DNA from: Tolypothrix carrinoi HA7290-LM1
GTDB taxonomy: Bacteria > Cyanobacteriota > Cyanobacteriia > Cyanobacteriales > Nostocaceae
NCBI GenBank assembly: GCA_019358935.1
Contig: JAHHIK010000094.1
Span: 1-32,458, forward strand
Length of the DNA stretch: 32,458 nucleotides
Direction of reading: 5' to 3'
Numbering within the stretch: position 1 is the stretch's first letter; each line of letters opens with the position of its first letter. Made by a program: the position numbers. Of this stretch, positions 1 through 21,000 are shown piece after piece.

Positions 1-3000
1 CTTACTTTCCAATTATCTAATCGAGCAACTAAAACGTCCGGACATTGTTATGTCTATAGTTTAGTTTTTAGGCGCTCGGCGCGGCGCAGCCGCGCCATTG
101 CTTGTGCCAGTTGCGTAAGTCCTGTTTCTATTTCTTGGTCAATTTTAGTTAGAAAGTATTCAACTAATTCGCGTGGATCTATACTGCCACTATTAATACC
201 GCATCCGATTTTTTCCAGAGTGTAACTTTCCCAAACTTGCTCAATCATCTTAGTTCTTCGTTAATCAGATTAATTCCTAATAAGTGTCAGTAGGGCTAGA
301 GAGCCAAATTAGACAACTATCTCAACTTTTTGACTAATGTAATTAATGACCTGTTGTACTGTCAAAAGTGTTTTAGCGGTTTGAGGTGAAATTTCAATTT
401 TGAAGGCTTCTTCAAAGGCCATAATTAGTTCTAGTGTATCTAAAGAATCTACTCCCAAGTCATTGGCAAAATTTGCTATAGGGATGACTTTGTCTGGCTT
501 GATTCCTAACTTCTCTACAATGATTGCTTGTACTTTTTCAAAAATACCCAGCTTCTTTAACTGGTCAGATTGAATCGCTATTTTAATTTCTTCCGTCAGT
601 TTAGCTATTTCCTTCAATATTATTACAATACGTTGGTAGCGTTCACTATCCTCATTGTTTAAGTTAGAACCACTACGGGATTTGAGCCAGTGGTTACAAA
701 TTTGATAACTATCAATATGGAAGTTCCAAACCTCCGGCGATATATCCTTAAAGTATTGAATTTTATCGCTCCAACTGCCTATAATGGGCTTGTTGATGTT
801 TTCTGGAAGATACTTTTCCATAGGGTTGTTAGGGTCACTTTGTAAAGTGTTCACAAGCTAGGATCAGCACTATCAAGTTAATTCTCAAACCAAGGTTTAT
901 AGTTAAGGCTTAAGTCTCGTTTCCCTGTGTTCCGCTTTGTTTCCACCAAAGCCGATAATACAGACCCCGAAGATTGAGTAACTCTTCATGAGTACCTTGT
1001 TCAATCAGTTTTCCTCCTTCAAGTACGAAGATGCAGGCTGAAATTTTTCACATTTCTCTAAAGTTGTCAGGTCAATGATCACTTATAGAAACGGTTTCCG
1101 TCCCTTTGGGCGGTGGGACAAAATCTCCTGAATCATACGAGCGCAAGTAGTGCGAATTACACTACGGGTTGACCAATCATAAATATTCAGAAATCGGCTT
1201 AAGGCACTGGCAGACTTACTTTTACAGTGTTCGGGTAAAGGATGCCCTTGTGCCTGTAGGAACAATCCCAACATTGCTTCTAAGTTCTGTTCCTGATATA
1301 TAGAGGGCATCAACGACAGCAGAGTGTAAACTAGCCCTTGGGCGTGGGCAAGAATTGAGACCATTTTTCTTGCTTTTCTATATGCTTTTCACGCCCTTTT
1401 TTCTCATATTTCTGCTCATGAATGCAAATCCAGGTACTTTTTCAAATTGGCGATCGCCTGTACCCTGGGAATTTCCGTAATCTCAACATTTATATGGTTA
1501 TATCAATTGCTTTTTACTACTTAAATGCTTTTTCGCTTTTGGTGTCACTTTTTTACGCTCCTATTTCTGTATTAGTGGTTTATCCCGAGAGGTGCAAGAT
1601 ATAAGGTAGTGATACTTGAGTAACACGCCGCAGATCGTGACCATCAAAAAGCACTGAACCCTGGTTAGGATCGTAGAACCGCATGAGTAGGTTGAGGACA
1701 CTGTACTCTTGCCAGAGCCACTAGGGCGTGTTTTCAAACTCGTTATATTCTAAAAAATAGGCGATCGCAGACAGGTGAGGTTGATGAACCGAGGAGACTT
1801 AAGTAGCGAACAGTGGGAGAGGTTAAAACCGTTACTACCACCACAAAAATCCAGAACCGGAAAACCCAATAAAGACCATCGCACAGTCATCAATGGAATC
1901 CTATGAATACTGAGAACAGGAGCACCGTGGCGAGACTTACCAGAGCGTTATGGTCCGTGGGAGAGTGTGGCAACAAGATTTTATCGATGGCAAAAAGCTG
2001 GAATTTGGAATCGAATCTTAGAGCACCTACAAGCGAGCCTCCTCCGGAGGAGCTTCGCTAACGCAGACGAATATGGTTTCTTCGATTGGCAAGTTCATTA
2101 TGTCGATGGGACAGTTGTACGCGCCCACCAGCACGCTGCGGGTGGAAAAAAGGGGGCGAAGAAGATGAGAAACTAGGTCGTTCTCGTGGTGGTTTCAGTA
2201 CAAAAATACACATACGTTGTGAAGGTAAAGGTAAACCCATAACTTTTATTCTCAGTCCTGGTCAGCGAAACGAGTCAATTTTTCTAGAACAATTAATGGA
2301 ACAAGGTTCCGTTAAGCGTTCTGGGCGTGGTCGTCCACGTTTACGCCCTTTAAGATTAGTTGGGGACAAAGGTTACACAGGTCGGAGAATCCGTAATTAC
2401 CTGCGTCGCCGTGGTATCCGGTTGACGATTCCACGACTTTCCAACGAACCACGTCGAGGCCCTTTCAGCCGTGAAATCTACCGTCAACGCAACATTGTTG
2501 AACGTACTATCAACCGACTTAAGCAATTTCGCCGCATTGCTACCCGATATGAAAAACTTGCTGCAAATTATACAGCCATGATAACGATCGCCTGCATTTT
2601 GTTATGGTTATAGTTTGAAAACACGCCCTAGGACCAACAAATGTCTCTCGGGCAAGCTGAGCAAAAGCCTTTAGATGACCAATTTTGAGTAGAAAAGTTC
2701 TGACTGTAGTCAGCTAAACTTGGACGCCTTACTTTAACACCTTCTAATTCAAGAATATGAATAAACTCATCCAATTCTTTTTGTGCTGGCGCAATACCCC
2801 ATTTCTTGGGAATTTTAGTGCCACCTATAAAGAAAAGAAGATTATAAAGCTTTTGGGGAATCCCCCCTAACAAATATTTATGTCTAGGGGGAAGAACAGA
2901 ACCTTCTAGCCTACCGACAACAACTTCCTCTAATAGATCTCATTCATTGTATGAGTTAACCACACAATCGGTTGTTATAATATCGTCACTTTCATTGCCA

Positions 3001-18000: not shown

Positions 18001-21000
18001 TTAGCAAAAACAGTAATATCAGGTGTAACGCCTAACAGAGATTGTGCCCCACCGAGAGCTACTCTAAAACCAGTAATCACTTCATCAAATATGAGTGCTA
18101 CATGATGACGATCACAAAGTTCTCTGACCTTTTCCAAATACCCTTGTTGAGGTAGTATGCCTCCTCCATTAATACAGATAGGCTCCATGATAACAATGCC
18201 AATCTCGTCGCCGCGCTTTTGCAACAGATTTTCTAGCGCTTCGCTATCGTTCCATGGAAGTAGGAAAGATTGCTCTTGCAAAATATTGGGAGCGCGTCCA
18301 TCAGTCCCGAGAAAATCTCCTTCATAATCCACAGGGACAGGATGATCGGCAGATTCTGGTTTACCTCCCATAATATTGTCTGCATTACCGTGATAATGTC
18401 CCTGAAATCGGACAAATTTGTGCTTACCGGTATAAGCTCTGGCAAGCCTAATAGCATTCTGCACAGATTCAGTGCCACTCAGACCAAAACGTACCATTTC
18501 AGCACTGGGCACATGATGAATAATGCGTTCGCAAACAAGTCCTTCCAAATCGCATTGATCGACAGAAAGTACTTTATTCATGTAGTTGATTAACTTTGCC
18601 TTGTATTCCTCGTTGCCGTGTCCTACAATCAAAGCACCAAACTTACAAAAAAGATCGAGATGCTCATTACCATCCAAATCCCATACTCTCGATCCTTTTC
18701 CTTTACTAAAGGGTATCATAATATCTTTTATGCGATAACGGAAGTTGTAGTGGACTCCGCCTGGTAGATAGTTCTTTACCTGCTGGACTACTTGCTGAGA
18801 TTGAGGAAATTTAAGTTTCGGCATTGCAAGAATTCCTTATTAACAACTTGGGTTAAATAGTTAAAGCTCGGACGATAATGAGATTCACGCATGTTACATT
18901 TTCAAGGAGAATACTGATGCTTAAATCTCTTTCCAAACGACACCTATTGAGAAGAATAAATTAAAAATTATGGTGTCACTTTATAGGTTCCATAATGTGT
19001 ACCATAGTTTACGCCTAGCCCGTTGAGCAGACGAAGACGAAAGAGATAAGCGGCTCCTCTCATCAGATGATAAGCAACATCAACAACATGACGGTTTTCT
19101 GGTTTCTCTAAGTATGACCCCTTTGCCCATTCATTAAACGCACCCATCGCTGGACCGCACCACACCTGGTAATCCATTTTTCGCTCGTGTACCCCAGCGC
19201 TAGCCCAACGAGATGATTTCCCAAGGTACCACTTAAAAATAAGGGCCATTTTTTTCTTCGGGTTGTCTAAAGCTTTCTGAATTTGACTAGGATCGCGCTC
19301 CGAAAAGAACTGAACAGTTTCATCCCATACTGTATCCAAATCCTTTTGAAAAAGCTCCTTTTCAATTTTTTGCCTCTCTACTGCTGGAATTTCATCGATA
19401 GAATTATACTGCCTGTAAATTTCATACAGTTTGTGAGCTCGCATCGCATAAAGTGTTCCTCTTTTTAAAACTTGTACCTTTACACCCATCTCAAACATAT
19501 CTGCAGCTGGAGACATGGCAACATCTGCAATATCTACTTGGGCTAATGAGGCTTTGACGGCTTCTGATGTACCGGATTCTAAACAGGCTTGATTCACTGA
19601 GCCAGTCACGACATAATCTGCTCCCATCATAAAAGCAGCCAACACTGCTTGGGGAGTGCTTATCCCACCTCCCGCCCCGACTCGAATGTTTTTTTCATAC
19701 TGATACTCCGCCTGAATCCGGTCTCTGATCTGTTGAATAAAAGGGAGCAGACAAATCAGCGGTCTGTTATCTGTGTGCCCAGCTGAATCTGCTTCTACAG
19801 TGATATCACTTGCCACAGGAACCAAGCTCGCCAAAGCAGCTTGTTCTTGAGTAATTAGACCTTGTGATACCAAATCCTGCAGTATCTTCTCTGGGGCTGG
19901 CTTCATGAATAGCTCAGCAACTTCTCTCCTAGAAATTTTGGCAATCACATGATTTTTAGCTGCGATCTGACCATGACTACTCTGAGAGAGCCCAGCGGCG
20001 TGATAATAAACAAGGTTAGGCGTCAAGTTCATAAAAGCAGATGCTTCTACCGTTTTTACGCCGTATTTGAGATACAACTCAACACATGCTCTTTCCAATT
20101 TCGGTTCGGAGGGGCTGTGAATAAGATTGAAGGCATAAGGGGCATCAGGAAGATTAGCTTGGAGGGTTCTGATGGCTTCTTCCACTCGCCTTAGAGGTAA
20201 ACCAGCCGCGCCAAACGAGCCCAAATATCCTTTTCTACCTAAAGAAGTTACCAAATCAACCGAAGCAATACCATTAGCCATAGCCCCTGCGTGATAGGCA
20301 TAATTCGTGCCGTGATCTTTTTTAAAAGCATTGCTACCAAGCCACTCAGGCTTTAAGGCTGGTATCAAGCCTGAACAATCGTAATCTCCTTTTGGCGAGA
20401 TTTCTCCACCCTTAGCGAGTGCAATGCCGGAATGGGTATGCAATACATAAAATGCTGTGTCTAGATCGTGTAAACAACGCTCAATTTGCGTCGCATCGGT
20501 TGCTATCAGATAATCCGACCCTTTCCATTTTAAGGGTGTACCAATGCTGTTTTCTTTGAGAAGAAGACTATTATTAATCATTTTCTTCTTATAGTTTAAA
20601 AGATTTAAGAGTGTTAGACAATAACTAATCTGGTTAAAAACTAACAATTATCCACCATCAGTACATCGTTACCCTGTTGCAGAATTTAAAATCAATATTG
20701 TCATACTGTATTCAGCAATGCCATCTTTGAGTAGTTGTGAGTCAGCAGAACCGCTGCTTTTTCAGCAATCATCATTACGGGAGCATTAGTGTTGCCACCG
20801 ATAATATCAGGCATAATTGATGCATCAATAACTCGCAGTCTTTCAACTTTGTAAACTTGAAGTTGGGAGTTGACAACTGACATTGAATCATTACCCATTT
20901 TGCAAGTACCAACAGGGTGATATAAAGTTTCTACAGTGTTGCGTATAAAGTTGCAAATGTCCTCTTCTGTTTGCACTTGGTAACCTGGTACTAATTCATC

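Follow-up and report, generated by a model that had tools for sequence, protein, structure and literature searches.

A Probable Zeamine-Type Polyamine Synthase Cluster with Linked Amidinotransferases and a Conserved Poly-A Junction in Cyanobacteria

Described Relatives of the Cluster

Two pathways, as far as the portions of the sources used here describe them, come closest to the gene cluster that we report: zeamine II biosynthesis by Zmn10-14 of Serratia plymuthica (PMC5811116), which shares with it the order PfaA, PfaC, PfaD-aminotransferase, free-standing ketoreductase (KR), and then thioester reductase (TR), and fabclavine biosynthesis by FclC-G of Xenorhabdus (PMC9113149), which has the same parts in the same order, a single ACP, and an optional PKS-type dehydratase (DH), FclC remaining functional without it. 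The heterocyst glycolipid (Hgl) synthase, Type F of Shulse and Allen (PMC3098273), has Pfa-type KS-AT-ACP, KR, KS-CLF, PfaD, and reductive release in common with the cluster, but it carries two ACPs, lacks FabA-type DHs, an aminotransferase, and an amidinotransferase, and is near-universal in the family, whereas the present cluster is found in 3-4% of its genomes. The Clade II or Type G Pfa-PKS-NRPS clusters (PMC13291983) are likewise cyanobacterial with a split pfaA, but are without CLF and joined to PKS-NRPS. SxtG (PDB 6u1r), CyrA, and CpmA (PMC12371840; bioRxiv 10.1101/2020.08.26.267179) share fold and catalytic motifs with the two amidinotransferases treated below, AMT1 and AMT2, and SxtG is described as taking varied primary amines (PMC12371840). 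The passages used here from one preprint (bioRxiv 10.64898/2026.09.06.749771) count six hglE-KS/PUFA clusters, as the genome survey that drew attention to this locus had said, and our literature searches found no description of an amidinotransferase-bearing polyamine-type cluster or of its A9 junction.

Gene Content of the Cluster

We analyzed contig JAHHIK010000094.1 of Tolypothrix carrinoi HA7290-LM1 over its 32,458 nucleotides (the window), in which the named cluster genes all lie on the minus strand at 2643-20581. Every gene that the survey had placed there is present: PfaD, a class-III aminotransferase, an SDR, a TR, AMT1, KS-AT, ACP, KR, KS-CLF, and a FabA-type DH. Beyond the interval given, the cluster also takes in a further ACP (309-854) and what remains of an amidase gene (122-248). 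The features are as follows:

18968..20581, minus strand: PfaD-type enoyl reductase (TIGR02814 above cut-off, 679 bits); its own gene here, aminotransferase-fused in Zmn12/FclE
17499..18824, minus strand: class-III PLP aminotransferase, orthologue of the Zmn12/FclE aminotransferase domain; PLP lysine motif intact
16688..17542, minus strand: stand-alone KR (SDR), FclF/Zmn13-like; 54% identity to FclF
15476..16681, minus strand: TR, FclG/Zmn14-like (TIGR01746 above cut-off); 44% to FclG, 30% to the genome's own Hgl TR
14172..15365, minus strand: AMT1 amidinotransferase, intact, with Asp/His/Cys motifs; matches PDB SxtG 6u1r (E 3.7e-169), no Pfam match
11064..14078, minus strand: PfaA part 1, KS-AT; catalytic Cys/His/His and GHSFG intact
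9650..11011, minus strand: PfaA part 2, linker and one ACP domain; Ser motif intact, stop right behind the A9 run
9657..9665, minus strand: A9 slippery run, the sole A/T run of at least 9 in the window; one added A would give an ACP-KR fusion of 979 codons
8073..9656, minus strand: PfaA part 3, KR, -1 frame; first ATG at 9476, preceded by about 60 conserved codons
7689..8062, minus strand: 5' fragment of a SAM methyltransferase (full length 364 aa, PRMT-like fold) and a degenerate copy of the KS-CLF start
4850..7660, minus strand: PfaC part 1, KS-CLF; a separate gene here and in L064, joined to the DH pair in 9 relatives
4575..4785, no strand: MITE-like repeat of about 206 bp with some 50 genomic copies, inserted upstream of the DH gene
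3103..4527, minus strand: PfaC part 2, FabA-type DH pair; likely true start 4527
2643..3050, minus strand: remnant of AMT2 that has lost its 3' part to a deletion; 136 codons are left, the 37th being TGA
1725..2627, plus strand: IS5-family element with CTAG on both sides, within the ABC-exporter remnant
900..1724, minus strand: pieces of the ABC exporter gene belonging to the cluster, interrupted by a fragment without a family match that we take to be transposase-like
309..854, minus strand: extra AcpP-like ACP whose N terminus carries a Type_ISP_C-like piece; in 9/12 full-core genomes
122..248, minus strand: 5' remnant of the amidase gene belonging to the cluster, truncated by a repeat where the contig ends

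The open reading frame reported as FabA does encode a FabA-type DH, its first 53 residues deriving from a repeat. A separate Hgl-type cluster lies on another contig (C77) of the same genome, as the survey had it. The upstream TauD/MT/ABC/citrate-synthase-like/GMC genes were rejected as conserved cluster members, being absent from every relative's cluster (the citrate-synthase-like gene was found in 0/40 relatives); with a gap of 120 bp, they may be co-transcribed with the cluster here. Promoter and terminator scans scored at shuffle level, and Rfam gave no match in the window and five further loci. A plasmid location was also rejected: there is no orthologue among 72,556 plasmids, the best identity among the matches listed being below 40%.

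Kinship with Zeamine and Fabclavine Synthases

Gene identity, intact motifs, orthology, and linkage are evident in the sequence. The description as a zeamine-II/fabclavine-type polyamine synthase suits the cluster better than that of a second Hgl synthase. It holds homologues of PfaA (KS-AT-ACP-KR), PfaC (KS-CLF-DH), and PfaD, a Zmn12/FclE-type aminotransferase tied to PfaD, and a stand-alone KR and TR directly behind that aminotransferase. These last three match the FclE aminotransferase domain, FclF, and FclG at 57, 54, and 44% identity, respectively, with order kept. The aminotransferase, which adjoins PfaD unfused, aligns over 99% with the FclE domain; its closest long relatives are 55 PfaD-aminotransferase fusions (50-66%), including those of S. 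plymuthica, Dickeya, and Xenorhabdus, and all subsequent matches are at 42% or less. To 54 such fusions it shows 54-66% identity over 99% of its length. In trees, KS2 groups with Fcl/Zmn (support 100/99), and the TR, SDR, and DH trees concur. Identity and gene order agree with the fcl and zmn loci, and the L035/L127 cluster retains the entire zeamine order. The survey's term "zeamine-like" is thus backed by the aminotransferase's relatives, by Fcl identity and order, and by the KS2 tree. Counting against this kinship, PfaD is closer to Hgl (60%) than to Fcl (53%); KS1 is equidistant from both. A duplicated Hgl synthase was rejected (KS2 grouping with Hgl, p-AU 0.001), and the combination of HglC-type KS-CLF-AT, no FabA-type DH, and Hgl descent that marks an Hgl synthase was not found, a DH pair being present.

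The cyanobacterial clusters differ from Zmn/Fcl in having PfaD and the aminotransferase as separate genes, PfaA in two to three pieces with an A9 junction, one or two added amidinotransferases, and, in some, glycosyltransferases. Like Zmn/Fcl, L035-type clusters have a hydrolase gene behind the TR. An amidase (PF01425) takes the place of nitrilase-type FclH/Zmn15, the cyanobacterial loci compared having no match to the CN hydrolase of L086. The NRPS/PKS arm and the stand-alone condensation enzyme of the full antibiotic clusters are absent from the window and from the mapped cluster loci.

By analogy with Zmn10-14 and FclC-G, KS-AT, ACP-KR, and KS-CLF-DH would extend a chain from malonyl units, with reduction by PfaD; the aminotransferase would convert the beta-keto group to an amine at some cycles; and the TR would release an aldehyde, followed by transamination. 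The proposed role of Zmn12/FclE-type aminotransferases in those pathways is to install amines at positions along the chain, which makes a polyamine scaffold likelier than one terminal amine.

Amidinotransferases Linked to the Synthase

AMT1 and AMT2 form clades separate from SxtG, AMT1 being 65-68% identical to SxtG-clade proteins. The lid is acidic in the SxtG clade (7 D/E) and basic in AMT2 (1-3 D/E, 5-7 K/R). The Asp, His, and Cys motifs of arginine amidinotransferases are present in AMT1 and in the AMT2 of relatives, and mostly missing from the AMT2 remnant here. A saxitoxin-like cluster was rejected on account of these clades and the absence of sxt genes from the window; unlike SxtG and CyrA, the enzymes have no sxt or cyr context around the cluster.

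AMT2 is the constant partner of the core, carried by 13 of the 14 family genomes that bear the aminotransferase, and is the ancestral partner of the synthase; AMT1 is added in 10 of the 12 full-core genomes. The two amidinotransferases claimed by the survey are found in nine relatives; here AMT1 alone is intact, and three related clusters have AMT2 only. Linkage of AMT2 persists across three gene orders, in a hybrid with an Hgl-derived synthase (G602), and in L106, a locus outside the group. AMT2-clade genes without this synthase lie beside a FAAL-ACP-AONS-like gene (L036) or beside GNAT/amidohydrolase/MFS genes (L039), and PfaD was found in 0/5 genomes holding distant amidinotransferases. These other contexts, along with the many lesions in this genome, would suit amidinotransferases that are passengers, or a dead copy here, and a product that is a plain zeamine-II-like polyamine or nothing; the persistent AMT2 linkage and the low dN/dS of AMT1 (5/13 on the window's branch) make this very unlikely.

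The linked enzymes likely serve in amidination, as the survey suggested for a product that is itself predicted. They would transfer amidino groups from arginine to amines, giving a long-chain (poly)guanidine that would be exported and, in some strains, glycosylated. The pairing of amine-chain machinery with amine-to-guanidine enzymes, rare among these nitrogen-fixing cyanobacteria, points to what is probably an undescribed cationic lipid, by analogy most likely a long-chain polyamine that carries at least one guanidine. We consider an NRPS-free zeamine-II/fabclavine-type polyamine synthase with added amidinotransferases, A9 slippage and guanidine product included, the best explanation of the locus and a fairly probable one. 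It would extend zeamine-type polyamine chemistry to cyanobacteria with amidination added, in a predicted lipid class that we did not find described in the literature searched, and intact clusters in cultured strains of public record (L004, L033, L034, and L035) leave the product open to direct search.

A-T-AMT NRPS starter proteins have amidinotransferase domains that fall in the AMT1 clade, and AMT1, as kin of carrier-protein-linked enzymes, may act on carrier-bound intermediates. Alternatively, the synthase might start from a small guanidino compound, either guanidinoacetate or an amidino-amino acid, which an amidinotransferase makes and which perhaps enters via the extra ACP, leaving the guanidine at the methyl end. 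AMT1's nearest kin (75-79%) are indeed fused to NRPS A-T starter domains, the extra ACP is linked in 9/12 genomes, and CyrA and CpmA are proposed precedents (PMC12371840; bioRxiv 10.1101/2020.08.26.267179, in the portions used). This route is nevertheless unlikely: the scanned cluster loci showed neither an adenylation nor a ligase gene, the constant partner AMT2 falls outside the NRPS-starter clade, and two full-core clusters are without AMT1, with no extra ACP seen in their DNA examined.

The Poly-A Junction between ACP and KR

An A9 run, with a -1 change of frame, links the ACP gene to the KR gene. The survey had missed this junction, which is present in 12/12 clusters and in L106. Past the run, the KR frame opens with a start-less segment on which purifying selection acts and which has an in-frame homologue in HglE. 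HglE itself has a run past its last ACP, an in-frame A10 at the equivalent place in 30/30 loci examined. The host shuns AAA-AAA-AAA, with 7 of 148 KKK so encoded versus 37% expected. The locus thus has what is looked for in a slippage site, an A9 length conserved across homologues and a conserved overlapping frame, and the conserved A9/-1 junction together with the HglE A10 is indicative of programmed slippage in the PfaA-type genes of cyanobacteria.

Slippage here would be most likely by RNA polymerase and would yield both free ACP and an ACP-KR fusion. The slippery heptamer A AAA AAA of a -1 ribosomal frameshift is present, and no conserved stimulatory structure was found 3' of it (consensus -2.45 kcal/mol, 10 sequences). 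Three observations count against slippage: L135 breaks the frame by -1 at this junction without an A-run, Fcl/Zmn genes have no long run, and in five close relatives a TTG, 12 codons inside the KR frame, is a possible start. No natively fused ACP-KR close relative appeared among the matches listed (best 49%), which is a weak indication.

In Thermus dnaX and Shigella mxiE, transcriptional slippage likewise involves an A9 of conserved length and gives short and fused products (PMC1088944, which in the part used also describes A8-A10 runs in Nostoc IS elements). The present candidate site differs in lying in a megasynthase gene and in occurring in 0, -1, and +1 framings among paralogous clusters. 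The +1 framing is that of L136, a Clade II/Type G cluster with an A9 run at the same junction; the passages of PMC13291983 used here treat the piece behind the ACP as a protein whose function is not known and mention neither frameshift nor slippage. If slippage is true, these clusters are wrongly annotated, with KR called without its N-terminus; heterologous expression hinges on slippage in the host; and hglE, a core heterocyst gene, holds an unnoticed control point. A more elaborate proposal, which we put forward tentatively and regard as rather doubtful, is a natural long-chain polyguanidine whose several amines, installed by an iterative PUFA-type synthase, are amidinated, some on ACP and possibly with later ring closure onto enoyl intermediates, together with a poly-A slippage site, so far overlooked in the PfaA-type genes of cyanobacteria with hglE among them, that sets the ratio of free ACP to ACP-KR in place of tandem ACPs.

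Distribution among Relatives

The core is syntenic beside an amidinotransferase match in 10/80 loci, in keeping with the survey, whose phrase "conserved in Nostocales" is an overstatement: the full core is found in 12 and the aminotransferase in 14 of 389 family genomes (3-4%). Within its own genus the count is 2/10 genomes, and one genome (G480) has the aminotransferase alone. Among sequencing runs, one contains the locus in full and may be its source, and several contain parts, small shares being left out of account. The L106 locus (62% GC) comprises KS-AT-ACP, KR-DH, DH, aminotransferase, SDR, TR, and AMT2. A UDP-dependent glycosyltransferase is present in 6/11 relatives and a PMT_2 protein in 5/11, some clusters include HlyD/FtsX/ABC exporter genes, and a 256-aa gene of five relatives has no family match. 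No upstream DNA is shared between lineages, as for a mobile cassette.

These accessory genes, the heterocystous hosts, and the Hgl-derived synthase of G602 might suggest a structural (glyco)lipid of the envelope, in effect a heterocyst glycolipid variant that bears nitrogen, rather than an exported bioactive compound. We think this quite unlikely given the patchy, cassette-like occurrence, a KS2 that is not Hgl-descended, and inconstant glycosyltransferases.

Damage in This Genome

In T. carrinoi, AMT1 is the only intact amidinotransferase; the genes for AMT2, the amidase, the exporter, and both glycosyltransferases have been disrupted or have disappeared. The survey had correctly described a 136-codon AMT2 remnant and had set it beside the IS5. 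As the cause of the truncation the IS5 was rejected: a 3.3-kb microhomology deletion fuses the remnant to the ABC-exporter gene, and the element sits just past the joint. The KR gene retains its KR and has lost the PKS-type DH of relatives through a deletion at the KR-DH linker. Core genes show 146 nonsynonymous and 131 synonymous changes on the window's branch and 102 and 109 on its sister (Fisher p 0.36), a comparison in which recent silencing is undetectable by dN/dS; the AMT2 remnant shows 4 and 0. The product here, if any, is likely a hydroxylated chain amidinated by AMT1 alone. The L002/G720 cluster is likewise damaged.

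Gene Content and Affinity to Polyamine Synthases

The cluster lies on contig C94 of the 7.96-Mb genome of Tolypothrix carrinoi HA7290-LM1, and the heterocyst glycolipid (Hgl)-type cluster of the same genome lies on a separate contig, C77. The features of the window are as follows:

309–854: AcpP-like ACP joined to a segment similar to the C-terminal domain of Type ISP restriction enzymes
2643–20581, minus strand: core genes for PfaD, class-III aminotransferase, SDR, thioester reductase (TR), amidinotransferase AMT1, KS-AT, ACP, KR, KS-CLF, and a FabA-type DH pair
7689–7946: within the cluster, 5′ fragment of a 364-aa methyltransferase with a PRMT-like fold (also at 17009–17233 of the related locus L002)
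20701–28173: co-directional TauD-like dioxygenase, methyltransferase, ABC-2 pair, citrate-synthase-like, and GMC oxidoreductase genes, stopping 120 bp upstream of pfaD
28705–32183: HetZ-related gene fragment, LuxR-type response regulator, CHASE2 sensor kinase

The catalytic motifs of KS, AT, ACP, KR, DH, TR, SDR, and the aminotransferase are all intact. AMT1 has no Pfam match; it matches SxtG (E 3.7e-169) and carries the SxtG catalytic motifs. The run from TauD to GMC is possibly a separate biosynthetic island, and its citrate-synthase-like gene was found in 0 of 40 relatives. The 364-aa methyltransferase, which could serve in guanidine methylation, is intact only near the cluster of one genome, G515, among 389 (L102:2731–3825), and five related clusters have a 256-aa protein of no known family between the extra ACP and the amidase (L065:11697–12467).

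Three genes match the fabclavine (fcl) loci of Xenorhabdus and share their order: SDR is 54% identical to FclF, TR 44% to FclG, and the aminotransferase 57% to FclE, whereas TR is 30% identical to the Hgl TR of its own genome. The reference loci are anchored by a 100% match of L086 to a named X. bovienii protein and a 99.6% match of L108 to an S. plymuthica protein. In an IQ-TREE analysis of the KS of KS-CLF (19 rows, rooted on four KS-AT rows; 10 of 29 aligned rows omitted as near-duplicates or extra KS-AT rows), the cluster is sister to the fabclavine and zeamine II synthases (100/99), and a placement with Hgl is rejected (p-AU 0.001). FastTree trees of TR, SDR, and DH agree with this placement; those of PfaD, KR, and the KS of KS-AT are unresolved, and PfaD is by identity nearer Hgl. 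The nearest long relatives of the aminotransferase are 55 PfaD-AMT fusions, 54 of them at 54–66% identity over 99% of its length.

Passages of PMC5811116 and PMC9113149 describe how the same gene set yields a long chain bearing several amines in zeamine and fabclavine. The cluster shares the gene-level features of that synthase that were tested, and its sequence predicts that it works like a zeamine-II/fabclavine polyamine synthase. A guanidinated long-chain polyamine is probably the product. None of the full zeamine/fabclavine, Hgl, and sxt clusters fits.

The literature searched, which covers few subscription journals, contained no description of the cluster, its product, or the junction discussed below. 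As the survey had noted, a 2026 preprint (bioRxiv 10.64898/2026.09.06.749771) goes no further, in its abstract and the section examined, than counting such clusters. In the portions examined, neither "lipid" nor "fatty" appears in PMC12371840, on amidinotransferases; PMC13291983, supplement included, lacks guanidine, amidino, and frameshift terms; and PMC7214866, PMC3098273, PMC5009743, and PMC3711429 gave no relevant passage on term search.

Two Amidinotransferase Lineages

In a quick tree of 82 rows, AMT1 and AMT2, the second amidinotransferase of relatives, form different clades (support 100 and 99), both apart from SxtG. The AMT1 clade takes in seven proteins, and the two scanned are both A-T-AMT NRPS starters; L006–L012, from Microcoleus, Oscillatoria, and Calothrix records, are NRPS starter proteins of A-T-amidinotransferase architecture (Pfam-checked in L007 and L010). 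The AMT2 clade includes a locus of 62% GC (L106) with KS-AT-ACP, KR-DH, DH, aminotransferase, SDR, TR, and AMT2; no KS-CLF or PfaD was seen in the 21 kb examined. At 2118–14446 this metagenome contig carries a minimal version of the cluster, keeping AMT2 and the A9/−1 junction. An exclusive link between AMT2 and the synthase is weakened by two other members: one adjoins an AMP-binding/ACP/aminotransferase (FAAL-ACP-AONS-like) gene (L036:9884–14961), whose product may be a guanidine derived from a long-chain amino-ketone, and the other (L039) has no lipid synthase within 11.6 kb. Two AMT2-clade proteins (P0191, P0227) come from records whose longest contigs have exactly the lengths of those of two PfaD-AMT fusions (P0005, P0047), against ~0.05 such matches expected by chance, a hint that this pairing may occur elsewhere too.

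Distribution in Relatives

The synteny reported by the survey holds: after 132 AMT1 relatives were reduced to 80 loci, 10 of these have the core. The aminotransferase (E ≤ 1e-100) occurs in 14 of 389 genomes and 7 of 68 genera of the family, and in none of 400 others sampled phylum-wide. The full core is present in 12 of the 14, with AMT1 between TR and KS-AT in 10; G540 has the same order without AMT1. AMT2 (at least 81% identity to the L064 query) is found in 13 genomes plus the window's remnant, overlapping the aminotransferase set in 13/14. Linked genes in 11 relatives, within the sequence examined, are the amidase (8), a full ABC exporter (8), a UDP-glycosyltransferase (6), and a PMT_2 protein (5); the DNA upstream of pfaD is common to a single lineage only (five genomes). 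Since these genomes are kin, the counts show linkage, not independent origins. The cluster is real, rare, and mobile-looking.

The other two aminotransferase genomes are a hybrid with an Hgl-derived synthase (G602) and one with the aminotransferase alone (G480). The hybrid (C77:4800–33000; L122, L123) joins this type of aminotransferase, a TR-ACP fusion, and AMT2 to that synthase, with additional PapA-like acyltransferase, carbamoyltransferase, and Rieske oxygenase genes. The lone aminotransferase (L124:17411–18754) stands apart from synthase genes, its neighbors being hemC-like, MFS, and RTX-repeat genes. An AMT2 fragment at L002:2997–3450, 97% identical to the L064 copy versus 82% to that of its own cluster, suggests inter-lineage exchange or a mixed assembly.

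A Reduced Copy in Tolypothrix carrinoi

Lesions were read against the nearest relative (L001/L064, 90–96% DNA identity). The PKS-type DH is deleted in the assembly, and KR ends at the same linker as the DH-less FclC; in Xenorhabdus, loss of this DH gives a hydroxylated product and synthesis continues (passages of PMC9113149). The survey had placed an AMT2 remnant beside an IS5. The remnant stands, with a TGA at codon 37, but the cut is a 3.3-kb deletion that joins AMT2 to the exporter gene and also removed a glycosyltransferase, and the IS5 lies within the exporter remnant. The PMT_2 gene that the nearest relative has between KS-CLF and DH is gone, a 206-bp repeat sits ahead of DH, and the amidase gene is truncated at 122. 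A search of the rest of the genome found no spare AMT2. The copy, as assembled, is a reduced cluster, making relatives the better test strains.

Summed over nine core genes, nonsynonymous and synonymous changes number 146 and 131 on the window's branch versus 102 and 109 in its sister (Fisher p 0.36); the corresponding counts for the AMT2 remnant are 4 and 0. The ratios argue for past selection on the core through most of this branch.

A Run of Adenines after the ACP

The ACP frame stops just past nine A's (9657–9665), the sole run of at least nine in the window, with KR continuing in the −1 frame. This arrangement occurs in 12/12 full-core genomes and L106 (in L127, with a gap upstream, the junction alone was read). 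The first start codon of the KR frame is ~60 codons beyond the run here and ~80 in L001, with a TTG at codon 12 in five relatives. In 8 pairs the start-less KR segment has pN/pS of 0.22–0.57, and its alignment to in-frame HglE begins at its second residue (E 8e-39). The genome holds 99 exact A9/T9 and 11 A10 runs. Of 148 KKK sites, 7 use AAA-AAA-AAA, versus 37% expected. L136 has a +1 shift at its A-run. Other compared loci count against slippage: L133, L086, L087, L108, and L113 lack a run at the junction, L111 and L112 have A7, and L135 has a −1 break without an A-run.

At the corresponding position, directly behind its last ACP, HglE carries an exact in-frame A10 in 30/30 loci (L184–L213; own copy L088:7562, on C77), which are kin, being the best-scoring of a 121-genome search. 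In 14 further hand-picked Pfa-type loci, the 10 with short frames (L214–L223) have A9/A10 with a shift (−1 in 6, +1 in 4), and an in-frame A9 is present in 3 of the 4 long fused loci. The A-run after the ACP is, on this comparison, a candidate family-wide slippage site in cyanobacterial Pfa-type genes. We favor slippage by transcription at the A9 junction because all three framings occur and no stimulator is seen, a criterion taken from a passage of PMC1088944; no conserved downstream RNA structure was found at the junction. Such slippage may tune ACP supply; higher PUFA output with more ACPs is reported in PMC5067506.
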